Positions 3,991 to 60,024 are shown, counted from the first letter of the stretch. The stretch is 64,000 bases of DNA from a virus (IMGVR_UViG_3300026176_000228:1-64000), one strand, 5' to 3'. Notes: generated by a model not told the origin, from the letters alone. Numbers and translations are program-made.

Positions 3991-4775
3991 TGCATCCCAC
4001 CTGGCAATCAGAAGATGAGCGTGTGCAATTATACCAAGCTGATTGTCGCGATGTTTTGCCTTTACTATCAGTTGGTGCAGCTAATATCGCGATTACTTCA
4101 CCGCCCTATAACATGCGGACTAGAATCCGAAATGGTGTATATACGGAACGTGAAATCGGTCAACACTTCTCGCGTAAGTATACCGACTTTCACGACGCGT
4201 ATCCCATCGCAGAATACTACGATATACACAAGGCTATCATCTTAGAGCTACTGCGCATCACCAGTATGAGTTTTATCAATATCCAAATTGTAACTGGCAG
4301 TAAAGAAGCCTGGTTCGCGCTCATCGGTGATTTTCGCCAGTATCTCAAAGATATCGCGATTTGGGATAAAGGTAGTGGTCAACCCGCGATGCATGATAAC
4401 GTCATGAACCGCGGTTCGGAGTTGATTTTGATTTTGGAATCCGCGATGACGGCAGGACGTGCCTTTCGGCGGTCCTACTTTCCGCGCGGCACGATGCCGG
4501 ATATCTGGCGACTAGGGCGCGGTGGCAGTGGCGAAGTAGATGGTAACGGGGCGGTCTTCTCAATTAAGCTAGTCAATCAGATATTACAAGGCTGGACATT
4601 ACCGGGTGATACCGTGCTTGACCCATTTATGGGTTCTGGTACGACGGGTATTGCAGCCCTGCGCGCGGGCAGGAAATTCATCGGTATTGAATTAACTGAG
4701 AGTGGTTTTGACCTGGCCAAGAAGAATCTGGTTCAGGAACTAGAACAGCAATCTATCTTTACGTTGGGAGCCTGA
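3990..4775 (+). CDS. DNA amino-methyltransferase (SPPY, probably N4-C)
   Basis: ITSPPY...VLDPFMGSGTTG. Confidence 0.92.
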   Translation: MHPTWQSEDERVQLYQADCRDVLPLLSVGAANIAITSPPYNMRTRIRNGVYTEREIGQHFSRKYTDFHDAYPIAEYYDIHKAIILELLRITSMSFINIQIVTGSKEAWFALIGDFRQYLKDIAIWDKGSGQPAMHDNVMNRGSELILILESAMTAGRAFRRSYFPRGTMPDIWRLGRGGSGEVDGNGAVFSIKLVNQILQGWTLPGDTVLDPFMGSGTTGIAALRAGRKFIGIELTESGFDLAKKNLVQELEQQSIFTLGA

Positions 4776-4776
4776 C

Positions 4777-5055
4777 GTGATTAGAATTTTAGACTTCGGC
4801 GCGACATGGTGCGCACCCTGTAAAACTCTACGACCTACCATCGAGCGCATCGCGCGCGAGTATGACATTAGTATCGAAGAAATTGACGTAGACCAAGACA
4901 GTAATACAGCGGAGAAATACGGTATCGTTTCTCTGCCAACTGTCTTGTTTTTGACAAACGGTCAAGCGGTCACAACTCTTTATGGTTCTAAAGTTAATTA
5001 CGCGTCTATCACGCGCGTGTTAGGTGAGTTGGGGCTGCATCGAACTAGAACCTGA
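4777..5055 (+). CDS. trxA: Thioredoxin
   Basis: DFGATWCAPCK active site and cis-Pro SLPT. Confidence 0.9.
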   Translation: MIRILDFGATWCAPCKTLRPTIERIAREYDISIEEIDVDQDSNTAEKYGIVSLPTVLFLTNGQAVTTLYGSKVNYASITRVLGELGLHRTRT

Positions 5056-5444
5056 TGTTGTCCGGTATAGTTCTGGCTCTAGTTTTACTGCTCAATACCT
5101 GGACTGGTGATGCCACTTGTTATGGAAAGGGAATTTTTCAGAAAGTTTGGGAGTATCGCAAAACTTACCTAGCGCCCTGTCCTGAATGTGTGGGCTATGC
5201 TGCGTTAGCTGACCCTAAGTATACCGGCAGTAAGATATGGGTTAGTGATGGCGTGCATTTCAGTGGGAAACTGCATGTCATCGACAACGGTGTGTTTCAT
5301 ACGCCCGGTCGGATTGTCGAGTTAGATGCTGAAACCTGTGCCGCGTGGGGCATGCGCGCGCCACGTAGAGTCACAGTCCAGTTCTATCCCTGGCTAGTGC
5401 AGTATCCGCGCGATTGGGTGCCGCCGAGAATACAAAAGGAGTAA
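5055..5444 (+). CDS. Secreted or membrane-anchored protein, possibly double-psi beta-barrel (RlpA/3D-like)
   Basis: Hydrophobic N-terminus; VIDNG...RIVELD pattern. Confidence 0.5.
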   Translation: MLSGIVLALVLLLNTWTGDATCYGKGIFQKVWEYRKTYLAPCPECVGYAALADPKYTGSKIWVSDGVHFSGKLHVIDNGVFHTPGRIVELDAETCAAWGMRAPRRVTVQFYPWLVQYPRDWVPPRIQKE

Positions 5445-5449
5445 TTGTT

Positions 5450-5463
5450 TTAGCATATGCCAA
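5450..5463. promoter_or_regulatory. Dispersed palindrome copy 3 (TTAGCATATGCCAA)
   Basis: Overlaps ATG 5457. Confidence 0.75.
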
Positions 5464-5681
5464 ATTACGAAGTCATCAGCTTAGGCTTAGAACCTCAGGT
5501 CTTGGAGTACACGGATTACACTGTCGCACAGGCTTATTATAACGCCTGTTCAGGAATGCGCTTTCTCAGAAAGGTTTCCGATGTTCAAACTAACAGTTTT
5601 GTTGACTATTGTCTTACTCGGCTTAGTGCCCGCCTCCCGCACTTTCGCGGCCAGTTCACCGCAGATGAGTTCCCAGGCTAG
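5457..5681 (+). CDS. Hypothetical protein
   Basis: aggag RBS, but overlaps the next ORF by about 100 nt. Confidence 0.4.
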   Translation: MPNYEVISLGLEPQVLEYTDYTVAQAYYNACSGMRFLRKVSDVQTNSFVDYCLTRLSARLPHFRGQFTADEFPG

Positions 5682-6009
5682 TTATCAGGGTCAAGGTCCG
5701 GTGCAGGTGTGGACGGAGCATGTCTTTGATATTCATACGATTCGCAATCGTCCTGCGGCCTTGCAGAAGTTTCTCAAATCCTGTCGTGAAACCAGCGGTT
5801 ATCAACCGGATGGGCAACTCGCCAAAGCTATCTTCAAGAATGCTAAAGGGCGTTGGATGATTCGGATGATTAGGTTGGAGAGTCGTGTGATGCCCGCGGT
5901 GTTGTTTCCAATTTACTACGATAGTGTCGGGATGTGTTTTAGGCGAGTAGATAATCAGCAGCCGATTCGTGGTGTGGGTGGTGTCTGTCGGAATTATGGG
6001 ATTAGCTAG
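5581..6009 (+). CDS. Hypothetical protein with signal peptide
   Basis: aaaggt RBS; N-terminal hydrophobic stretch ending in an AxA-like site. Confidence 0.6.
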   Translation: MFKLTVLLTIVLLGLVPASRTFAASSPQMSSQASYQGQGPVQVWTEHVFDIHTIRNRPAALQKFLKSCRETSGYQPDGQLAKAIFKNAKGRWMIRMIRLESRVMPAVLFPIYYDSVGMCFRRVDNQQPIRGVGGVCRNYGIS

Positions 6010-7395: not shown

Positions 7396-7588
7396 TGTTA
7401 CATTCCATGTCTCAGACATGGCACGGCGCGGTATCAACTGGAATCGCGGTCGTCCTGGTTTAGCCACGCGCGCGGATATACAAAATGCTATCGGTGCGAC
7501 TGTAGATGTTTGGCTGGATGATATGGCTCAAGAGGGCTACGAGGCAGATAGTGAATCCGAAGAATCAGGAGCAGAAGATGACGGATGA
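7385..7588 (+). CDS. Hypothetical protein
   Basis: Overlapping-stop operon arrangement. Confidence 0.6.
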   Translation: MKVSVTFHVSDMARRGINWNRGRPGLATRADIQNAIGATVDVWLDDMAQEGYEADSESEESGAEDDG

Positions 7589-7769
7589 TGATTGGAATGT
7601 GCTGATGCAAGAGAAGATTACGCGCGCACCCTGGTGGAAGCATAAGCCTTACTTTCACTTTGGACTACGCGAGGATTGTCCTTATATCTGGTTTGGTTAT
7701 TGGCTGATTACTTGGGATAGAAGTTATCAAGGCATGTTGCGCATTGATATTAGCTTTTTGCCGGATTAG
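7578..7769 (+). CDS. Hypothetical Trp-rich protein
   Basis: aggag RBS before ATG 7578. Confidence 0.55.
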   Translation: MTDDDWNVLMQEKITRAPWWKHKPYFHFGLREDCPYIWFGYWLITWDRSYQGMLRIDISFLPD

Positions 7770-46827: not shown

Positions 46828-47739
46828 TCATCGTCTTCCCATAGTATACCACAAACCAAAGGCAGTCAGGTAGCCTGATTGGTCAAATAAACTGGTATCA
46901 CACTGCACCGGTTGAAAAGCCCACCATTCTTCATTACGAATATAATCCGCGAACCACGCGTGACCTAGAACCTGTGGATCAGCCTCAAAAACCTGGCGTA
47001 GTTTATCAGCTTCTACTAGAGCCGCATTGATAGAGGGTTGACCCAAGACGTTCATAGTAGTACGCGGACACGGTAAGATGGCCCATTCAGTAATCCAGAC
47101 CCCCGGTGCGTTTAGTTGTTGCGCCATCTGCTTATACCATTCCAGTTCAGCTAAGCACTCTGCCGCGGTGGGGAAATAGCAGTGCATCGCCAAACCCTTA
47201 TCGAAGCGCGGGTTAGTATGGTACAGGCGTTGATATTCTGCGACCATATTGCTGAGCCATGCACGGCCCCATGGTGAAGGCGCAGGCGCGATTAATTTAT
47301 GTTCAGGATAAGCTTGTTCAATGCGCCGCCAGAGAGTCGCGTACTTTTGCGGCGAGACATTGCATTGTTGCGGTAAGTCACATTCATTGCCACCCATGAC
47401 GCCTTCAACATACCAGGGTATTGCGGGTAACTCGCCTTCGTCATACCAACCCCACAGCATCGCGAACGCGCGCACTTCCCCATAACATTGACCAGGCTTG
47501 GCTGACCAATCGTAATACCAGTAAGCACTGCTCTGTAAAATAGTGTTACAGTTGCTGTAAGGCGAACTAATGCCCTGCTTGGGTAACTGCAAAGGCATGT
47601 TGACCATGGGCCAGTAATAAGTATAAAAGTTCTTAGCCTCAACTATAGGTATGTAGATTGTGGTATCAGCCTGCACAGTACCGGGTAACAGAAACCACAG
47701 ACATATAATCATCAAAAAGATGACAGTTTTTACCACCAC
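46828..47739 (-). CDS. Secreted GH128-like glycoside hydrolase
   Basis: Signal peptide, IYIPIV motif, WYYDW, GNECD, MHCY, VWITEW. Confidence 0.78.
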   Translation of the reverse strand: MVVKTVIFLMIICLWFLLPGTVQADTTIYIPIVEAKNFYTYYWPMVNMPLQLPKQGISSPYSNCNTILQSSAYWYYDWSAKPGQCYGEVRAFAMLWGWYDEGELPAIPWYVEGVMGGNECDLPQQCNVSPQKYATLWRRIEQAYPEHKLIAPAPSPWGRAWLSNMVAEYQRLYHTNPRFDKGLAMHCYFPTAAECLAELEWYKQMAQQLNAPGVWITEWAILPCPRTTMNVLGQPSINAALVEADKLRQVFEADPQVLGHAWFADYIRNEEWWAFQPVQCDTSLFDQSGYLTAFGLWYTMGRR

Positions 47740-51576: not shown

Positions 51577-52461
51577 TTAGCCCTCCTGCGCGGACTTGGC
51601 CCGCGAGCGCACGCTGCGTAGGTAGGCTTCGGCGTCTTTCTTGGACAGCTTGAGAATTTCAGCCTTGGGGTCATCCGACTTGGCAATGACCGCGAGGGCA
51701 TCCGGCTGTTCCGGCGTAAAGGCCGTGCCTTTTTCAATGAAGAGTTCCGCGTCAGCGGCCATGGCATCCACGGACTTCAGTAGATCAGTCCAGAATGACA
51801 GGCGCTTGGCATCCCACTTCGCCAGGGCGTGCAGTTGTTCACCGAGTTCGACAGGAGCGACAGGAATGGCCGCGAAGCTATTCGCCTTGGCGATATAAGT
51901 CTCGCGATCACGCTCTTCGCGCGCCTTTTCGACCTCGGCAACCAGGGCTGCATTCGCTTTTTCAAGTTCCGTGAGACGGCTTTCGAGGGCCGCTTTCTCG
52001 ACGGTGTCTTCCATGGTTGCCTCCGGGTTTGAGGTTTGAGGCTCACTGGCCTCGGATTCGGGTTTAGGTGTGGTCATGGATTCTAGTTCTGAAACTTTTT
52101 CGAGTTGCTTGGCCTCGACTACCGTCTCGGCAGGTATAACTTCAGAAGCAGCTTCAGGTTCTGGCTCAGGTTCTGGTTCAAGTGTAACTTCAGCTACAGG
52201 TTCGACTTCAGTTTCAGCTTTGACTAGTTCGGCCATCTCTGTATCTACGGTTTTCTGGAAGAGTTTGAGGAAACGCGTCCAGAGATTAGTTTCAGGAGTG
52301 GCCGCAGCCGTAATATCGCCCGCTACAGTAGCTACATCATTAGTATCAGACTTGAGCAAGAAGAATTCCTCGCGATTCGCCCCTTGAGTGACCAGCCCAA
52401 GAGTCTCGACTTGGACATCGCTGAGTTCAGTGATGATGGTGTTGTGGTCGTTATCAGGCAT
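51577..52461 (-). CDS. Scaffolding protein with an XkdF-like N-terminal strand
   Basis: ELSDVQVETLGLVTQGANREEFFLLKS, acidic linker, coiled coil. Confidence 0.75.
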   Translation of the reverse strand: MPDNDHNTIITELSDVQVETLGLVTQGANREEFFLLKSDTNDVATVAGDITAAATPETNLWTRFLKLFQKTVDTEMAELVKAETEVEPVAEVTLEPEPEPEPEAASEVIPAETVVEAKQLEKVSELESMTTPKPESEASEPQTSNPEATMEDTVEKAALESRLTELEKANAALVAEVEKAREERDRETYIAKANSFAAIPVAPVELGEQLHALAKWDAKRLSFWTDLLKSVDAMAADAELFIEKGTAFTPEQPDALAVIAKSDDPKAEILKLSKKDAEAYLRSVRSRAKSAQEG

Positions 52462-52517
52462 TTAGCCTACCTCCCGACGCGTATGAACGCGTTCTCTGGG
52501 CGCTCCAACCCGCGGAA

Positions 52518-52748
52518 TTAACCAAGTAACAGGCGGGAGAGCACACTGGGGCGCTTTTCCCCGTAGGTGCGGATGGTCGGTTGCTGCATTTCAACATAGA
52601 GTTGGACCAGCTTGGCAATAGTGGAGAGTCCGACGACTAGAAGTGGAACCCAAGGTTCTTGCACCCAGCTTTCCAACCAACCCGACAAGGCACCTGTCAG
52701 CAAAGTAATGAGCGCAGCCCATGCCGCGCCCGGAAGCTGTACCCGCAT
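52518..52748 (-). CDS. Holin-like 2-TM protein
   Basis: Two TM helices and basic C-terminus. Confidence 0.55.
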   Translation of the reverse strand: MRVQLPGAAWAALITLLTGALSGWLESWVQEPWVPLLVVGLSTIAKLVQLYVEMQQPTIRTYGEKRPSVLSRLLLG

Positions 52749-52780
52749 ATGTAGACCCTTTCTGTATGATGTGCGCTAAT

Positions 52781-52929
52781 AAAAAAATCAGGCGGGAAAC
52801 TACAAGAGGTTCCCGCCTGATTCCACTACATGTTTGACTGGAAGTGACTGCTCCCTTGGGTTTACCCAAGAGCTTCTATGGATTTTCACCAATTCTCACC
52901 AGCCCGTGAGAAATAGAGCGCATCAACCA
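52781..52929 (-). ncRNA. Putative sRNA / attenuated leader (about 150 nt)
   Basis: Promoter TTGACA-17-TATGCT (52964-52936); terminator aatcaggcgggaa...ttcccgcctgatt-T-tract; 14 nt complementary to the start of 58592-59524. Confidence 0.5.
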
Positions 52930-53080
52930 TAAACAAGCATAGCATATGGTGCATGCTTTGTCAAGATGCTGTTTCAAGTTATTTTTAAATAATTTACAAC
53001 GTTAGTACAACGTTAGATCGAAGTAAAACAATTTAGTGGTTATTAAAATATAGTCTAGGGTTTGTGACACTCCGCATGGG

Positions 53081-54223
53081 CTAAAGCCCAACGGCTTCTT
53101 GGGGCACGCACGCCGCAACCGGCCACGTTACGCCCCAGGCTCGCTGTCCGCGGGCCAGCAGATTACGTGCAGCGTTCTCATCTCGATCCATAGATAAGCC
53201 ACACGCGCACCGCACCCAGCGATCTGCTAACGTTAGGTGCTCAAATATAGAACCGCATTGTGAGCAGGTTTTAGATGAATAAGCGGGATTGACTGCCACA
53301 ATTAACTTCCCGGCCCATGCTGCCTTGAAAACTAATTGACTACGGAAGTAACCCCACGAAGCATCTAGAATGCTCTTTGATAAATGATGGTTCTTTACCA
53401 TATTGGTGATTTGTAAATCTTCAATCGCAATACGGTCATAATGTGATACTAAATTATGGACTGTTTTTTTGATGAAATCAGTACGTCGATTAGCGATACG
53501 CCGATGGTGTAACTGCACCGCGCGCTTGGCCCTACCCCGACCTCGACTACCATTCTTGCGACGCGACATACGCCGCTGTAAGACGCGAAATTTAGCTTGC
53601 TCAGTACGATACCATTTCGGGTTTTCGATATGTTCACCGTTTGATATGGTGAGTAATGAGCTAATACCCACATCAATTCCAGCTTCTTGACCAGTTAGCC
53701 CAAGTGGTTGTGGGTCTATCTCACAAGCAAAGCAAACATACCATTTATTCGCTTGTCTACGGATGCGTATGGTTTTGATTCTACCCTCTATGGGACGATG
53801 CCAGCGAACCGCGACGCGTCCAATACCCGATAGTTTCAAACGCCGACCGTCAATCTTGAAACCGTTGTTTAGTTCTTTAAAACCAAAAGAATCATAACGG
53901 CCACGTTCACGAAAGCGTGGATAACCCGGTGTCTCGCCTGCCTTAACCCGGCGAAAAAACGCCTGAAACGCTTTATCCAAATCAGTCGTGACGACTTGCA
54001 AGACATGACTGTGAATCTGTCCAGCGAAGGAGTTTGCCCTGCGGTAGTTCTTAACGTTTGCTAATTGCTCAAACTTGCCAACACTGCGTTTTTCTCCTTC
54101 CCACGCATCTCTGCGTTCCGCAAGACAAGTATTGTACCAGTGACGACAAGTTTCAAGCGTTTGATTTAGTAGACGCGCTTGATTCTTGCTTGGATACAAA
54201 CGGTATTTGTAGGTAATCAGCAT
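53081..54223 (-). CDS. tnpB: TnpB RNA-guided endonuclease
   Basis: YKYRLYP, GIDVG, IAIEDL, CSQCG/CACG, DRDENAARN; RuvC D-E-D intact. Confidence 0.95.
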   Translation of the reverse strand: MLITYKYRLYPSKNQARLLNQTLETCRHWYNTCLAERRDAWEGEKRSVGKFEQLANVKNYRRANSFAGQIHSHVLQVVTTDLDKAFQAFFRRVKAGETPGYPRFRERGRYDSFGFKELNNGFKIDGRRLKLSGIGRVAVRWHRPIEGRIKTIRIRRQANKWYVCFACEIDPQPLGLTGQEAGIDVGISSLLTISNGEHIENPKWYRTEQAKFRVLQRRMSRRKNGSRGRGRAKRAVQLHHRRIANRRTDFIKKTVHNLVSHYDRIAIEDLQITNMVKNHHLSKSILDASWGYFRSQLVFKAAWAGKLIVAVNPAYSSKTCSQCGSIFEHLTLADRWVRCACGLSMDRDENAARNLLARGQRAWGVTWPVAACVPQEAVGL

Positions 54224-54344
54224 CAGCTAGAACTCTCAATGCTAAACGAATTGCAGATGAATCAGTATCTACGCCATAGCGTTCGCGAATCCGTCGAATG
54301 GCCTCGCGATCAGTATCACCTAAATGAATTGTAGTGCGTTTCAT
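54153..54344 (-). CDS. RHH protein, probably translated from a leaderless mRNA
   Basis: MKRTTIHL...SSAIRLALR; TTGACA-17-TATACT ends 6 nt before ATG. The 3' end overlaps tnpB and may be shorter. Confidence 0.65.
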   Translation of the reverse strand: MKRTTIHLGDTDREAIRRIRERYGVDTDSSAIRLALRVLADADYLQIPFVSKQESSASTKSNA

Positions 54345-54431
54345 ACTTGGAGTATATCATTACGATACACATCTGTCAAATTCGATTGAGAGCAAGTCAT
54401 CTGCGATAAATCTGCGATAAAGTTGGCAAAG

Positions 54432-54520
54432 AAAAACAGCCGATGCGAGGGTACATCGACTGTTCTCCTACTACCTTCCACCATCATCCCCAACAGAGGT
54501 CTGTTTGACTGAACTCAACC
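54432..54520 (-). ncRNA. Putative sRNA (about 90 nt)
   Basis: Promoter TTGACA-18-TATCCT (54556-54527); terminator aacagtcgatg...catcggctgtt-T-tract; shares cagtcaaaca with the 52781-52929 RNA. Confidence 0.5.
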
Positions 54521-54552
54521 AACCTTAGGATAACACAGGTGTCATAGGTTTG

Positions 54553-55137
54553 TCAAGGGGTTGGCACACCCCAATGCGCGATAAGCTTGCGTAGACTCAA
54601 CGCAATATCTTCGGTAGCCGCGACTTCGCGTTGCCAGAGGTCTAGAGTGTCTACATCAGGAATGTCAGGGTCGCCGTCGTCATCGGGTGGACTGTCAAGT
54701 AGACGCTCCTGGAAAGTCGCGCGGTAGGAGACATGCCGGTTCCAGGGTAGACCTAGCCCACCTACGATATCGGAGATGATGGTATTGTTTTCGCGAATAC
54801 AGAGCGCGAGGGGGCCGAGGTTAGGCGGCGCGTAGCTGTTCGTAATCATGTGCTGGTTATTGGGATTGCCAGGTAACGCGAAGTTAGCCAGGTCGGGATA
54901 AGGCCACGCGAGCGAGACAGGCTGCGCGATTTGAATGCCTTCCGCGGTGAGGACGGCGCAAGTCGCGACCGTATTGCCTTGCGCGGAGGGTTCATCAATC
55001 AGTTCCACGCGAATGAGTTCATAGCGCGCGGTAGGTTGTAAGACAACTTGCAGTTCGACGCCCGTGATTTGCCCTTGCGCGTTTTGGGTGAGAGCGCGAC
55101 AGTTAGGGGCGCGTGGGTCGGTATAAGCTAGAGACAT
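54553..55137 (-). CDS. Hypothetical protein (possible cell-wall enzyme accessory domain)
   Basis: aaggag RBS; SDIVGGLGLPWNRHVSY. Confidence 0.7.
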   Translation of the reverse strand: MSLAYTDPRAPNCRALTQNAQGQITGVELQVVLQPTARYELIRVELIDEPSAQGNTVATCAVLTAEGIQIAQPVSLAWPYPDLANFALPGNPNNQHMITNSYAPPNLGPLALCIRENNTIISDIVGGLGLPWNRHVSYRATFQERLLDSPPDDDGDPDIPDVDTLDLWQREVAATEDIALSLRKLIAHWGVPTP

Positions 55138-55166
55138 TGAGGCTCCTTCTATTATATATTAATTAA

Positions 55167-55496
55167 TTAAGCTTGTAAGGGCTTAGTGATACTTAAATAA
55201 GCATTACTACACCAACCGGTTAGATAGGGTGGAACTTGAGTTTGCACCCAGTACCAGTTGTTAGCTATAGACCAGACATCTACCTTGGTATGCAGGGCTA
55301 GTTTATCGATGATGGGAGCCGTGAGCGCAGGTTGCAAGCGGAGATTGAGCGTAGTCGCGGTGACAGTAGCTTGACCAAGACAACAGACAGACTGATTATT
55401 AATTGGAAGCTGGCTTACCAAAAACTTTTTCGGATTGTCTAAACGGCTGCTACGCACCGTTTGTATCTCGCGTTTCAGTCTCTGCCGCACGGACAT
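55167..55496 (-). CDS. SH3b domain protein
   Basis: LNLRLQP...WYWVQ...TGWCSNAYL. Confidence 0.75.
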   Translation of the reverse strand: MSVRQRLKREIQTVRSSRLDNPKKFLVSQLPINNQSVCCLGQATVTATTLNLRLQPALTAPIIDKLALHTKVDVWSIANNWYWVQTQVPPYLTGWCSNAYLSITKPLQA

Positions 55497-55507
55497 GTCT
55501 AATGGCC

Positions 55508-56419
55508 TCAGGTACAGGGCTTGCTGGTCATGACGCGATTAGGTAAAGGTACTTGAGTGGGTAGTAGAGTTTGCAGTTCCTGCCATAAGGCATTGGGAAT
55601 GGGTAGCGCGGACCAGGCTTGATTCTGCGCGACTTCGTTACTGTTGGACATGCCGACAATGACTTGCGTGACTGCGGGATGCGCGAGGCAGAATTGTAAC
55701 GCGACCGCACCGAGAGGCACTTGATAACGCGTACAGAGTTCTTGCAGGGTTTGCACGCGGGCCGTGATAGATTCGGGTGTGCCATCGTATTCGTAGAAGC
55801 CCGCGATGGGGTCGGCTAAAATGCCGCCCGCGTAGATGGTGCCAAGTTGGACTTGGATATGACTTTTGCAGCAGTAGTCGAGTAAGGGTAAGGCGGCTTG
55901 ACTGAGTAGATTATAGTCTGCCGCGATTAGGATACAATCGGGTTGATAGGTTTTGACCAGCTTGGTCAGGGTCTGCCAGTGGTGGTACTGGCCGAAGCCG
56001 ATGCGCTGGACTAAACCTTGCGCCTTGAGGTCTTGTAAGACTGGATAGAGGTCAGGTACGGCAGTGCGGTAGTCGTAAGGGTCGTGCAGCAGTAATTGGT
56101 CAGCATGGGTAAGTTGCAGCCGTGCAAGACTCGCGCGCAGGCCGGTGCATAAGCCTTCGGGTGTCAGTGCGGGTCGCACGCCCTGATATAAGGAAAGGAC
56201 TTTAGTTTGCAGCGTGAAGGACTGGCGTGGCAGAGTGGACAGGACTTGACCTAAGCGGATTTCCGACAGACCATCGCCATACTTGGGCGCGGTATCGAAG
56301 AAGGTAATGCCCGCTTCATGCGCGCGCCGAATCGCGGCGGCGGCCACTTCATCGGATTGACTATGGGACGCGAAACAGTCCATACCAAGAGGCGCGGCAC
56401 CGAAGGCGAGTTGCGTCAT
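55508..56419 (-). CDS. Aldo/keto reductase (sugar dehydrogenase-like)
   Basis: FGAAPLG, FFDTAPKYGDGLSE, TKV, LLHDP, ALQFCLAHP. Confidence 0.9.
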   Translation of the reverse strand: MTQLAFGAAPLGMDCFASHSQSDEVAAAAIRRAHEAGITFFDTAPKYGDGLSEIRLGQVLSTLPRQSFTLQTKVLSLYQGVRPALTPEGLCTGLRASLARLQLTHADQLLLHDPYDYRTAVPDLYPVLQDLKAQGLVQRIGFGQYHHWQTLTKLVKTYQPDCILIAADYNLLSQAALPLLDYCCKSHIQVQLGTIYAGGILADPIAGFYEYDGTPESITARVQTLQELCTRYQVPLGAVALQFCLAHPAVTQVIVGMSNSNEVAQNQAWSALPIPNALWQELQTLLPTQVPLPNRVMTSKPCT

Positions 56420-57222
56420 TGGGCTACCTGTTTAACTTTGCGGATGCCTTTGCCACGGATGCTGTAAGCTTTGAGCAGACCGGATTTCACGCGCGGCCAG
56501 AGCGTCGGGCCGAATTTAGTCGCGACCACCCAGGAGCCTTTAGTGACGAACTTAGTAGAGCCATCGGGCAAGGGCCAGTTGATATCAATCGGCGCGATGA
56601 AGGATTCTACGATATGAGCTTCGGATTTCGCGACATCTAGGATTTGATGCTGGATATCATAGTTTTGCGAATTAGACATCCAAGCATGGGCCATTTTTTC
56701 GATTTCTGGAATTTCCATGCGGTCATTTTGTGAATCGACCCAATCCTCTGATGTCGCAGGATAAACTATTGCATAGCCTACTTGTTCCTCATCGGCGGAC
56801 TTGGCAAACATAGTAGCCTGCACGGTGTTAGTTTGCGGCCAAGGATTAACGGCGCGTAGGTGCGGTAGCTCGGCGTCAATGATTTCATTGAAAGTACCTA
56901 GAGCTTCACCAATCGCATGGGATAGTAAAATGCGTTCGTCTTGACCATAGACGCCATCACCGTACATCAGATCAGCCTGGACGGTAAACTCGCGATGCAC
57001 GCTGGCGATCAGTCGGTCAATCACGTTGACGGCTTTTTCGACCTCAACTATAGGTTCAGATTTAGTGACCGGCTTAGTTTTGTCACCACCTAATTCACCA
57101 AGCATATCCTCTACAGTTTGGCGTAACAGACGCAGGAACTCAGCTTCAGTCATAGGCGCGGTTTTAGCAGGCTTAGATAGCGCGTTAGGTTGATGCACTT
57201 GCGAAACAGTTGGTGTCGGCAT
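56416..57222 (-). CDS. XkdF-like prohead serine protease
   Basis: VDSQND, EIEKMAH, DIQH, IVESFIAP, KGSWVV, AYSIRG. Confidence 0.85.
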   Translation of the reverse strand: MPTPTVSQVHQPNALSKPAKTAPMTEAEFLRLLRQTVEDMLGELGGDKTKPVTKSEPIVEVEKAVNVIDRLIASVHREFTVQADLMYGDGVYGQDERILLSHAIGEALGTFNEIIDAELPHLRAVNPWPQTNTVQATMFAKSADEEQVGYAIVYPATSEDWVDSQNDRMEIPEIEKMAHAWMSNSQNYDIQHQILDVAKSEAHIVESFIAPIDINWPLPDGSTKFVTKGSWVVATKFGPTLWPRVKSGLLKAYSIRGKGIRKVKQVAQ

Positions 57223-57255
57223 AAGATTGCTCCGTACTATGATAATTATACAAGT

Positions 57256-57284
57256 ATCATAGCACAGAGTCGTAGGTCTGTCTA
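57256..57284 (-). promoter_or_regulatory. sigma70-like promoter for the protease gene
   Basis: TAGACA-17-TATGAT. Confidence 0.45.
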
Positions 57285-57288
57285 TAAC

Positions 57289-57567
57289 CTATTCTTGTAA
57301 TTCAAGCATTATAGGTGCCAAGTCAACATCAGCATCGCGCAACACCTGAAACAAGCCTGCTTCTAGACCCATAATCTGTTGTTCAGTCAAATCTAACTTT
57401 AGATGTCGATTCAAGGCTTCGATAATTTCATGCAATAAAGTTGACATCTGTTGTTGAGGCACAAGACGTTTATCGATTTTGATGCGTAAAGACGCGGATT
57501 GCATTTCACCCATACAATCCAAGAATGGATCGGTAATTAGTTTATAATCATAACCAAGTATGCGCAT
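57289..57567 (-). CDS. Small zincin-like phage protein
   Basis: TLLHEIIEA. Confidence 0.7.
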   Translation of the reverse strand: MRILGYDYKLITDPFLDCMGEMQSASLRIKIDKRLVPQQQMSTLLHEIIEALNRHLKLDLTEQQIMGLEAGLFQVLRDADVDLAPIMLELQE

Positions 57568-57717
57568 TTATTTGATATCGATCCTGATGTAATAGCTGTC
57601 ACCAGATGGTACGCGATACGCGGTAATAGTATAGCTGGCGATATTAGTTTCCATCTTAGTCGTACGCTGCATCCGAATCTCATCTATGGCATAGGCAATC
57701 CACTCCGGTATGTTCAT
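57568..57717 (-). CDS. Small hypothetical protein (49 aa)
   Basis: gaggt RBS; fills the gap exactly. Confidence 0.5.
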   Translation of the reverse strand: MNIPEWIAYAIDEIRMQRTTKMETNIASYTITAYRVPSGDSYYIRIDIK

Positions 57718-57735
57718 TTGCAACCTCGTTTCTGG

Positions 57736-57945
57736 TTACTTATGTCTTTCTTCAAGTTCCACCGCGCGTATCCCAATACAAGCCAGGACTTCCAGGGCGG
57801 TATCGCGCCCCATGCCGCGATAGCCTTGTTTGACCATCTTATCAGCCATGCGCGAGATAATGGCGCGGTCCTCTGGACTCAGGTTTTTGAAGGCAGCTTT
57901 CGCGGCAGGCACGACCTGCTTGCGTTGGGTATCATCTAGATTCAC
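57736..57945 (-). CDS. Hypothetical protein
   Basis: aggag RBS plus GTG. Confidence 0.65.
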   Translation of the reverse strand: MNLDDTQRKQVVPAAKAAFKNLSPEDRAIISRMADKMVKQGYRGMGRDTALEVLACIGIRAVELEERHK

Positions 57946-58417
57946 GGAGACTCCTAAGAATTTTCTAAGAATTATTCAATTTCTTTAGCTATCGTATTGC
58001 GTGTGTTTCAGCAAATTGAATCATACCACGGCTATGCTCATCCGACACAGAAGTTACACCTTTTTCAACGAGCCAGGCTGGAATAGGTTTACTGCTCCAC
58101 CAAACGGTCTGTGACAACAAATCAGATATCTCATTATCGTTACTGCGCCAGTAAGCCGCGCGAGTGCCATCTGGTAAATCAAAATTACTGACAACACCAT
58201 AATCAATATCAAGGCCGTTCCAGCGTTCCAGTAACCACCCAAAACCATTATCAATATGCCCCTCGCGAGTCCATACCCACGCCTGATCCTTACTTGTTCC
58301 CGCTTCCCAAGTCGCAACCTTCTTCGTAGTACACAAGATGACTGAATGATATGGCATTTTATGAATATCGGGTTGTGGTCCACGTTTAATTAAGTATAGA
58401 TTCACGGAGACTCCTAA
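57937..58417. repeat. 21-bp direct repeat tagattcacggagactcctaa (57937-57957 and 58397-58417)
   Basis: Identical RBS plus first codons of two adjacent genes. Confidence 0.85.
57989..58405 (-). CDS. Hypothetical protein
   Basis: GTG start within the repeated RBS block. Confidence 0.65.
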   Translation of the reverse strand: MNLYLIKRGPQPDIHKMPYHSVILCTTKKVATWEAGTSKDQAWVWTREGHIDNGFGWLLERWNGLDIDYGVVSNFDLPDGTRAAYWRSNDNEISDLLSQTVWWSSKPIPAWLVEKGVTSVSDEHSRGMIQFAETHAIR

Positions 58418-58419
58418 AA

Positions 58420-58433
58420 TTGGCATATGCTAA
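58420..58433. promoter_or_regulatory. Dispersed palindrome copy 9 (TTGGCATATGCTAA)
   Basis: Abuts the RBS of 57989-58405. Confidence 0.75.
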
Positions 58434-58591
58434 ATCTATATTATTAGTATACCAGAAGGAGTCTGTCTACCACAAGCGCACAAGCAAGTTACGGGTATGA
58501 ATCTAGTATGAATCTTGGTTTGAGGTTGCTTCTCTCCTGCCTCTGTGGTTCAGAGGTTAGTTTGGCGGTCATTTAGTGGGCTAAAGTCAGG

Positions 58592-59524
58592 TCAGTTACA
58601 CAAATTTGGTGGTATAGCGGCTAAATAACCCCTGCTAACTGCTTTAGGAGCCATTAATTTGCGATAAGCTAACCAACTTGCGCTAATACTAGTGGTATCT
58701 ATAGAAAATGTTTGCTTGTGGAGTATCTTACGAGCTTTGAGCTTACGTTCCGCGATGATGCGGAAGAAGATTTGTTGGATGGTCTGCTGATAGCTGACAT
58801 GTTCTTCGACAGTGGTAGGAATCAGGTTGATAGTTTCAGCCACAACTTGCAGATTGATATCCTCGATGACTTCATCAGTAATCGGTTGATCGTTCTCGTC
58901 AGTGATAAAAGCATCTTCGATATCTACCACCACGCCTTCAACCTTGGGCTTGCTGGGCTTGGCTCCCAAGTTACCGGAAAGCTTAGCCCCATGACCGTCA
59001 CGGCGCTCGTAGGGTGTATCCATGATTGTCGCGATGTCATAGGTGATAATATCGTCTGTAGTAACCGTTTCTAATTGGGGCGTGCTAAGCGGTGCGGTGC
59101 TAACAAAGAAAACAATGGCTGTGTCATCGGTTTGAGGAATCCGCAGATAATCACTTTTACCCGCAATACCCTGGGCTTTGATAAAGGTTTTCCACTCAGC
59201 CAGGGGTACCCGCATACGATAGAGGGGTAACGCGCGCTTGTTGGCCGCAGCCATGACCCGCATGAGTGTTTCGCGACCCTCTTGCAGACGTAGATTGTTA
59301 CAAAACTCGCACTCACGGTCATGGCAGTAGAAGGGGCGCATGGCGTAGGAGCCAGTGGCATCATGATAGCAGGCATGTCGCACACCACAGTCGCGCATGC
59401 GTTGCTGGCGTTTTTCTTCGCTGTTGCTACCAGACATAGACTTGAAAGCTTCCGGGTCTTCATCGAGAATAAACTTATGGTCGGTAGCGATAGTTGTAGC
59501 TGGCTCTGGGTTCCAGTCAAACAT
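58592..59524 (-). CDS. Rep-like protein with Cys4 Zn domain
   Basis: RMRDCG...CHDRECEFC resembles the Rep_1/IS91 Zn-binding N-terminus; no HUH motif seen. Confidence 0.55.
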   Translation of the reverse strand: MFDWNPEPATTIATDHKFILDEDPEAFKSMSGSNSEEKRQQRMRDCGVRHACYHDATGSYAMRPFYCHDRECEFCNNLRLQEGRETLMRVMAAANKRALPLYRMRVPLAEWKTFIKAQGIAGKSDYLRIPQTDDTAIVFFVSTAPLSTPQLETVTTDDIITYDIATIMDTPYERRDGHGAKLSGNLGAKPSKPKVEGVVVDIEDAFITDENDQPITDEVIEDINLQVVAETINLIPTTVEEHVSYQQTIQQIFFRIIAERKLKARKILHKQTFSIDTTSISASWLAYRKLMAPKAVSRGYLAAIPPNLCN

Positions 59525-59584
59525 AGATTATAACCTCATATGGATTGTTGTATGACATTGGAAAGTTATCTCGTAGTATCATGT

Positions 59585-59735
59585 ATTATACTCGCTGTTA
59601 GGGCTTCTCGTCAATAGCTTTCTTGTTCCAAAAAGGAGTATACCACAACAGTAAATGCATGTCAAGTACTCAATATACAGAAAAACTCAACCCCTTTTAT
59701 AGCATTTGACATGTGATTTATAATAATGATATGAT
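59585..59735. promoter_or_regulatory. Divergent promoter region
   Basis: Minus strand TTGACG-18-TATAAT (59614-59585) and TTGACA-17-TATACT (59665-59637); plus strand TTGACA-18-TATGAT (59706-59735). Confidence 0.7.
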
Positions 59736-59790
59736 GTGTACATACACAGGTACATAGAAATGTACACAACCCAATCTATGAGGTAAATAT

Positions 59791-60024
59791 ATGGCTCGTA
59801 GAACAGAAGGCATTCGGCAAGTCAATTTCTGGATACCGGAGAGTTTATGGGAGAAATTCTATCAGAGCTATCGGATGACTTCGCACAAATCATTACGGAG
59901 CCTGTTCGAGATGATACTGCAACAGTGGGTGGATGGGCCTGGGGCAACTATCCCCAACCAGAAACCGCTATTTCCTACTCCATCACAGGGTACGCCAACC
60001 CAGAGTGGCGCACCAGAAAGCTGA
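59791..60024 (+). CDS. RHH-like regulator
   Basis: QVNFWIPESLWEKF...SLRSLFEMILQQWV; gaggt RBS. Confidence 0.65.
   Translation: MARRTEGIRQVNFWIPESLWEKFYQSYRMTSHKSLRSLFEMILQQWVDGPGATIPNQKPLFPTPSQGTPTQSGAPES

Follow-up and report, generated by a model that had tools for sequence, protein, structure and literature searches.

In phage lambda, transcripts from the late promoter PR' stop at the terminator tR' as the short 6S RNA, and read-through depends on antitermination by Q. Other short RNAs act in trans on translation starts, as the c4 RNA of P1/P7 does on ant and DicF on ftsZ, and sibling small RNAs with diverged targets are known in OmrA/OmrB and in Qrr. We describe here a locus that can be set beside each of these systems: two units, each made of a promoter, a leader and a terminator and free of any open reading frame (ORF), on the minus strand of IMGVR_UViG_3300026176_000228:1-64000, which is the first 64 kb (“the window”) of a 104,755-bp IMG/VR phage contig. 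Unit 2 (RNA of about 89 nt, 54432-54520) and unit 1 (about 149 nt, 52781-52929) lie on either side of an inserted module carrying tnpB, directly ahead of the structural genes of the phage, and the original prediction had taken them for two redundant antisense small RNAs.

By analogy, the units resemble lambda PR'-tR' in that a promoter of constitutive type, with its short leader and strong intrinsic terminator, stands directly before late structural genes (in lambda, lysis genes as well), and in that a short abortive RNA would be made by default. They differ from lambda in being present as two tandem paralogous copies, in the lack of any recognised Q-like gene or Q-binding site (no search was aimed at either), in the host, which is probably a member of the Chloroflexota, and in a transposon-derived RNA scaffold carried by one of the leaders. 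As with c4 and DicF, these would be short ORF-less RNAs with an intrinsic terminator and an accessible stretch complementary to a start region; unlike them, the unit RNA doubles as a late-operon leader, its pairing is predicted from sequence and no covariation was seen. Tandem duplicated units with a common core and different flanks also recall OmrA/OmrB and Qrr, and the best predicted targets differ between unit 1 (a 310-aa gene and ORF 7506) and unit 2 (gene 96253).

A further likeness is to the omega-RNA, or right-end RNA (reRNA), of TnpB in IS200/IS605 elements (PMC10705468, PMC10055086). Positions 52844-52922 carry the corresponding right-end scaffold (hairpin, AGAAGC, hairpin, GGAG-N-GUCAC), and a variable flank starts right past GUCAC, as it does in 49 of 80 TnpB loci. 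This copy differs from an ordinary omega-RNA in its position, which is not the 3' end of tnpB, in comprising only the last ~70 nt and in having its own promoter and terminator. It also departs from both omega-RNAs and TldR guide RNAs in that no cognate TnpB was found in the contig and no transposon-adjacent motif (TAM) lies beside the site that it would match.

Tandem units ahead of the structural operon

We read units 2 and 1, with a probability of roughly 85%, as native tandem paralogous promoter-leader-terminator modules upstream of the structural operon, separated by the TnpB module, with unit 1 bearing the scaffold and having undergone a 10-nt deletion. The comparison with related phages carries this reading. 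The two units are adjacent in L086 and L089, about 90 nt apart and with no TnpB between them; their promoters there are near-identical (CCTCTTGACAAACC...TATGCTATCCT) and their leaders related (GGTTGA, then a short box common to both units). By this resemblance, units 1 and 2 are tandem paralogues, and the 10-mer that they share is therefore inherited by common descent. The supposed pair of redundant small RNAs with a shared seed thus resolves into duplicated leaders, and their position on either side of TnpB is incidental.

Both P1 (52936-52964, minus strand; TTGACA-17-TATGCT) and P2 (54527-54556, minus strand; TTGACA-18-TATCCT) are near-consensus sigma-70-type promoters. P2, whose -35 box includes the TGA stop of the 194-aa gene at 54553-55137, is conserved in L084, L086 and L089, and the extended -35 of P1, CTTGACAAAGC, is common to seven genome sites. 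The extended -35 CTTGACAAANC was found at 811, 36365, 52965 and 54557 in the window and at 93818, 96206 and 104159 elsewhere in the genome (seven sites, against none in a reversed control). The sequence past the promoter is also held in common by unit 2 (TTGGTTGAGTT...), unit 1 (ATGGTTGATGC...) and a ribbon-helix-helix (RHH)-like gene at 854 (ATGGTTGAGTT...), and the units may derive from a duplicated promoter and gene start.

Each terminator, t1 (52781-52824) and t2 (54432-54467), is a long GC-rich hairpin followed by a U-run, whose stems vary between relatives yet stay paired. Unit 1 as a whole, which runs from its leader through the inserted scaffold and the box to t1, folds with a minimum free energy of -55.6 kcal/mol (z of -4.0 against shuffles). 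Unit 2 consists of a leader beginning GGUUGAG, the box UUCAGUCAAACAG (54514-54502) and t2. The box of unit 1, UUCCAGUCAAACAU (52830-52843, minus strand), is the seed of the original prediction; the box is identical in the two paralogous units while the rest of the leader has diverged, and every version has it single-stranded directly 5' of the terminator. Gene calling yielded no gene within either unit in any relative, so that the description of two ORF-less promoter-to-terminator units holds, with both units conserved and their promoters and terminators identified.

The position of the modules is conserved as well. The window has the 76-aa membrane-like gene (52518-52748, minus strand) as the first gene of the structural operon, starting 33 nt past t1 and followed by the protease/scaffold and capsid genes, and the promoter-terminator layout before late genes is conserved in L084, L086, L087, L088 and L089. 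Even the distant clade of L087 (with the scaffold) and L088 (without it), whose gene encodes 78 aa and whose leader is different (GCGAA(G/A)TCAACTC), has it 33-60 nt ahead of the 76/78-aa gene. The promoter of each module, of constitutive type, its short leader and its strong intrinsic terminator would thus directly precede the 76-aa, protease/scaffold and capsid genes.

That these modules gate late transcription is the likeliest reading of their function and, in our estimate, an even bet. RNA polymerase arriving from P2, P1 or the upstream operon would halt at t2 and t1 unless termination were overcome, and the short RNAs would be by-products of the gating. In that case GGUUGA and the AGUCAAACA box, the words conserved in the leaders, might be cis elements or simply inherited sequence, and the 14-nt complementarity to the 310-aa gene might be incidental or a secondary layer. 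Between 52936 and 52300 the minus strand has no other sigma-70-like promoter; with none past t1 over this interval, transcription of the structural genes would have to read through t1. The same arrangement, with this extended -35 and a promoter-leader-terminator-ribosome-binding-site order, stands before the gene for the tail tube (36365), where the leader lacks the box. Together, the missing promoter and the tail-tube layout led us to read the units first as late-operon gates.

Three points weigh against gating. No antiterminator (Q-, N- or put-like) was recognised, although no search was aimed at one; the box, being absent from the tail-tube leader, is not a general antitermination signal; and a box that is identical in the paralogues, accessible and matched to a start codon more closely than chance would give fits a role in trans at least equally well. 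Gating and an antisense role in trans are compatible with each other.

Short direct repeats lie between t2 and P1. Two copies of TTTATCGCAGA (54400-54421, minus strand), between t2 and the promoter of the RHH-like ORF of the TnpB module, read as candidate operator repeats, and relatives have three to four copies of TTATCCCAA at this position (between the units in L086/L089). A second repeat, two copies of TACAACGTTAG on the plus strand, occupies 52995-53016. The repeats may serve as binding sites for regulators and vary from phage to phage.

A TnpB module and a second omega-RNA scaffold

The inserted TnpB module (53064-54395, minus strand) has its own promoter (54379-54351), an RHH-like ORF (54344-54153), tnpB itself (54223-53081, 380 aa) and a right end, RE1, which ends ...GGAGTGTCAC at 53064, at the tnpB stop. 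When the element is compared with other TnpB loci, all similarity stops at 53064. The module is absent from L086 and L089, and a contig from a digester/fuel-cell study (run X2) joins 53097 to 54396; insertion between the two units would have taken place in the lineage of this phage. The X2 contig holds, in place of the 1.3-kb RHH-tnpB module, only 17 nt and the tip of RE1, with an upstream flank ending GATGAC. This remnant looks like a miniature derivative with a CCGCAAG word resembling a left end.

Unit 1 carries a second right-end scaffold, RE2 (52844-52922, minus strand; two covarying hairpins, AGAAGC and GGAG-N-AGUCAC), which makes up half of the unit and of which about 52913-52844 is the inserted part. 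It was recognised through relative L003, whose TnpB element has the right end ...AGAAGC-hairpin-GGAGTAGTCAC followed by phage flank; this motif recurs in the window with ends at 53064 and, inside unit 1, at 52844. The same motif forms the element end in 49 of 80 TnpB loci from bacterial and archaeal genomes, and copies within one genome diverge directly past GTCAC, where the variable flank (the guide) begins. A covariance model (R2), built only from TnpB-linked transposon ends with the phage units left out, gave a full-length match to 52844-52922 (minus strand) at 50.8 bits (E about 1e-9) that ended exactly at 52844, and the alignment of this scaffold subfamily showed two hairpins with compensatory changes in 12 of 14 pairs. 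Rfam gathering and tRNA scans of the window gave no match.

RE2 is not at the 3' end of tnpB, a place taken by RE1, and is found instead 237 nt beyond the stop of that gene, with a promoter of its own in front. No cognate TnpB for it was found in the 105-kb contig, which is estimated to be 69% complete and encodes a single TnpB; that protein is 41% identical to the L003-type protein, whose element end resembles RE2. It keeps the RuvC motifs GIDVG, IEDL and DRDENAA in an alignment read by eye, and so is not nuclease-dead. Self-comparison of the contig revealed no second insertion sequence (IS) copy that would define the ends, and no hairpin resembling a left end was found upstream of the window tnpB. 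Left-end flanks are GATGAC in the window and TTTGAC in L016/17, and those of other genomes are heterogeneous, so that no firm TAM could be derived.

Relatives that lack the scaffold show it to be an insertion into a pre-existing leader. Unit 1 reads ...ATGGTTGATGCGCTCTAAAAAACAATAC-TTCCAGTCAAACAT-terminator in L084, in L089 and in X1/X6 contigs from two further studies, the last joining 52843 to 52940 with a break at 52843/52844. The scaffold is present in L086 and L087; in L086 it is followed by AAAACAATAT and then ATCCAGTCGAACAT, leaving 10 nt between scaffold and box. Only in the window lineage (L090 and L091 are identical) does the scaffold end abut the box directly, as the result of a 10-nt deletion. 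The leader of unit 1 would thus have gained the final ~70 nt of an omega-RNA scaffold from a TnpB element, and the later deletion would have set the scaffold end directly against the box. The guide of TnpB is the flank directly 3' of the right end (PMC10705468), and the box, beginning at the first base past the scaffold end, therefore occupies guide positions 1-14.

The ancestral type of unit 1 leader, as in L084/L089, opens with a conserved five-codon mini-ORF (ATG GTT GAT GCG CTC TAA), which the scaffold insertion lengthened to 14 codons in the window (52927-52883).

Complementarity of the box to start regions

The 14-mer ATGTTTGACTGGAA occurs exactly at 52830-52843 (plus strand) and at 59511-59524 (minus strand), the latter copy being the first 14 nt of ORF 58592-59524, the 310-aa gene; the proposed target, AUGUUUGACUGGAA (59511-59524, minus strand), is its start codon and codons 2-5. 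The 10-mer TGTTTGACTG has exactly three copies, at 52831 (plus), 54502 (plus) and 59514 (minus), all within 6.7 kb and none elsewhere in the 105 kb, and the minus-strand reading of 54511-54496 is CAGTCAAACAGACCTC. Every sequence statement in the original prediction proved correct. Two explanations of the repeats were ruled out: the 14-mer is not a copied fragment of the 5' end of the 310-aa gene, since similarity ends at both of its edges, and the 10-mers are not IS target-site duplications, since both copies are present in relatives without the IS.

We consider it possible, at well short of even odds, that UUCCAGUCAAACAU, in the short RNA of unit 1 or in the 5' leader of a late mRNA made by read-through, base-pairs with the 310-aa gene over its start codon and codons 2-5 and so blocks ribosome binding. 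The first gene of a leftward early/middle operon would thereby be shut down as late transcription rises, with ORF 7506 perhaps paired too, and unit 2, having diverged from its sibling, would act on another gene, 96253-96579. By themselves, long-range inverted pairs of 14-mers are no rarity (the window has about 24), but a 14-nt Watson-Crick run between unit 1 and any of 169 start regions was found in 0 of 200 shuffles of the 42-nt single-stranded part and in 2 of 200 of the 109-nt body. RNAduplex, which ignores accessibility, was uninformative because long looped duplexes dominated, and we relied on an IntaRNA-like scan of the same 169 regions that adds the opening energies of both RNAs to the duplex energy. 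The perfect 14-bp duplex of unit 1 with the 310-aa gene is worth -22.1 kcal/mol and costs 3.1 (RNA) plus 5.7 (target) to open, the box itself being accessible (opening cost 2-3 kcal/mol). The resulting net of -12.9 kcal/mol (about -13) was equalled in 1 of 68 shuffles and ranks second to the equally good predicted target AUGUUUGGCUGGAU at the start of ORF 7506-7769 (7506-7519, plus strand; -13.9 kcal/mol), with the third target at -10.7 and a mean of -2.9 (standard deviation 2.4). For one RNA this complementarity has a p of about 0.005-0.02 before correction for the search that led to it, which covered the whole 64-kb window, and such multiple testing counts against the antisense explanation.

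Unit 2 fared differently. Its 10-nt run is not unusual (36 of 200 shuffles) and the 310-aa gene ranks ninth of 169 among its targets, no better than background. Of the proposal that both units are small RNAs acting on this gene, the part concerning unit 1 thus retains support under shuffle control, namely an accessible box with an unusual start-region match that is kept in L084 and L089, while the pairing of unit 2 with it, and with it the redundancy, does not. The best predicted target of unit 2 is instead the start of gene 96253-96579 (-16.5 kcal/mol, with 0 of 34 shuffles as low), to which its 5' end would pair. The start region of that gene, UUGACUGAAAGCUCAACCAUG, is a near reverse complement of the unit 2 5' end, and a promoter with the same extended -35 (96206-96260, beyond the window) drives the gene.

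Both loci are known in three genome types (the window, L084 and L089). The 310-aa gene begins with ATGTTTGACTGGAA in the window, L003, L084 and L092 and with ATGTTTGATTGGAA in L089, and the box is unchanged in L084 and L089, so that pairing is 14/14 in the former and 13 Watson-Crick pairs plus one G.U (from a C to U change) in the latter. The L086 box, AUCCAGUCGAACAU, has two changes, of which the A-to-G would likewise give a G.U and the other a terminal mismatch. These observations favour pairing, but no double compensatory change was seen among the three genome types, so that covariation tells neither for nor against it, and single transitions, as observed here, preserve pairing half the time by chance; protein constraint (MFDWN) acts on the start codons as well. 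Further, the L087/L088 leader lacks CAU and cannot cover the AUG, P1 looks constitutive and would repress from the start of infection, and a 70-nt insertion and a 10-nt deletion were tolerated beside the box. An action of unit 1 in trans stays live because the box is accessible, identical in the paralogues and unusually complementary to a start codon. We conclude that the complementarity is real and unusual; that it works as a regulatory switch is a tentative suggestion from the sequence.

It is improbable, in our view, that (T)TC(C)AGTCAAACA is instead a DNA operator, that is, a protein site at both late leaders and, inverted, over the 310-aa start, through which one regulator would block the early operon too. 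The three exact 10-mer copies within 6.7 kb and none elsewhere in the 105 kb, the indifference of DNA binding to orientation, a quasi-palindrome around the unit 2 site (GGTTGAG-TTCA-GTCAAAC) and small RHH regulators encoded nearby (54344-54153) and at 854-1057 would all suit an operator. Paralogy, however, accounts for all but one of these copies, copies with one mismatch show no enrichment (6 against 3.5 expected), and neither unit 1 nor the gene start has a dyad; the mismatch that L089 has at the gene site and the two in the L086 box are unaccompanied by any matching change elsewhere.

Least probable of all, to the point that we would be surprised by either, are two RNA-guided schemes: unit 1 as a stand-alone omega-RNA gene whose guide positions 1-14 direct the neighbouring TnpB to the 310-aa start for binding without cutting, as in TldR-like repression, or an omega-RNA fragment built into the late-leader RNA, with a nuclease-competent TnpB and a short self-matching guide, as a TldR-like circuit at its origin. 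The scaffold is a bona fide omega-RNA 3' end that stops exactly at the first base of the 14-mer, with the terminator 24 nt further on and tnpB (RuvC motifs kept) directly upstream, and the literature describes short guides that bind without cleavage (PMC13507860) and phage TldRs with 9-16-nt guides (PMC10705468); but the adjacency of scaffold and box is unique to the window lineage (10 nt apart in L086; a box without scaffold in L084, L089 and X1/X6), the 5' flank of the putative target is unconserved in relatives (CTGGG, CTGAG, TTGTG) and unlike both the left-end flanks and the T-rich TAMs of the literature, the scaffold and the single TnpB of the contig belong to different subfamilies, and all of the scaffold but its last ~70 nt is missing.

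Gene context and implications

The phage has its near relatives in wastewater, digester and fuel-cell metagenomes, and the nearest relatives of the window TnpB protein (56-64% identity) are in Chloroflexota metagenome-assembled genomes; its host is probably of this group. A blastn comparison of 52400-60000 with a phage collection gave no match. All genes from 59524 to about 49000 are on the minus strand, in the order 310-aa gene, small ORFs, XkdF-type protease, aldo/keto reductase, SH3 protein, 194-aa gene, unit 2, TnpB module, unit 1, the 76-aa membrane-like gene, protease/scaffold genes and capsid gene.

The 310-aa gene (58592-59524, minus strand; promoters at 59665-59637 and 59614-59585) is the first of the leftward operon and has no assigned function. 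It had been called Rep-like, for which we found no support in Pfam, PHROG or PDB. The protein itself has no Pfam or PHROG match, its only close homologue is on contig L003, and 35 distant homologues have in common four invariant Cys, one Pro and a Ser-Gly; the family profile matched nothing among PDB sequences, a Pfam scan of 32 homologues was equally without result, and scans of IMG/VR with the 310-aa and 294-aa proteins as queries found no relatives. Its AlphaFold2 (AF2) model is confident (pLDDT 86) and has no Foldseek match at E <= 0.001; SIRV1 ORF119 scored best in VIA-align (Z 4.8), and RepB of pMV158 gave weak rows that are no more than a hint, too weak to sustain a Rep identity. The protein is a member of an uncharacterised family with a predicted fold that has no significant PDB match. 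Residues 1-30, including MFDWN, are predicted to be disordered and differ in the distant homologues.

Several repeats touch this part of the genome. An exact 18-nt inverted repeat, CCAGGGTATTGCGGGTAA (47413-47430 and 59157-59174; about 0.002 such matches expected by chance, by our estimate), links gene 46828-47739 with the 310-aa gene; the two share the minus strand, so that 18 nt of one mRNA would be complementary to the other. With 4040, 26235 and 44292 the 310-aa gene shares 14-15-mers. The palindrome TTGGCATATGCCAA (with a TTAGC variant) occurs mostly at gene junctions (1003, 2842, 5450, 9827, 15730, 20977, 28307, 40432, 58420 and 63851), one copy spanning the start codon of gene 57989-58426. 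Two consecutive genes have their ribosome-binding site and start region covered by a 21-nt direct repeat, TAGATTCACGGAGACTCCTAA (57937-57957 and 58397-58417); start regions are thus duplicated in this phage, which bears on the fact that ORF 7506 and the 310-aa gene begin almost identically.

Across the window, L003, L084 and L087, tnpB occupies four separate places in this region. L003 (87-97% identical to the window phage) has at 4362-5772 a different TnpB element (369 aa, 41% identical), which replaces the 143-nt intergenic stretch after the 310-aa gene (window 58449-58591); counted with the TnpB insertions of L084 and L087, four distinct ones fall within about 7 kb of related phages.

What is new here is the paralogy of the units, the position of their promoters and terminators ahead of the late operon, the omega-RNA scaffold in unit 1 and the TnpB hotspot. 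A caution follows for small-RNA searches, in that a “seed” shared by neighbouring RNAs can be mere paralogy. If unit 1 did act in trans, a phage leader RNA would have two jobs, the gating of a late operon and the silencing of an early gene; to our knowledge, no phage small RNA has been described for Chloroflexota, the probable host group. At least four different TnpB elements have landed at this locus in related phages, and about 70 nt of omega-RNA scaffold persists, with compensatory changes, in a leader RNA without its nuclease gene. Scaffold, promoter, terminator and self-matching “guide” thus combine readily, and such combinations are the raw material that is thought to yield RNA-guided regulators such as TldR.

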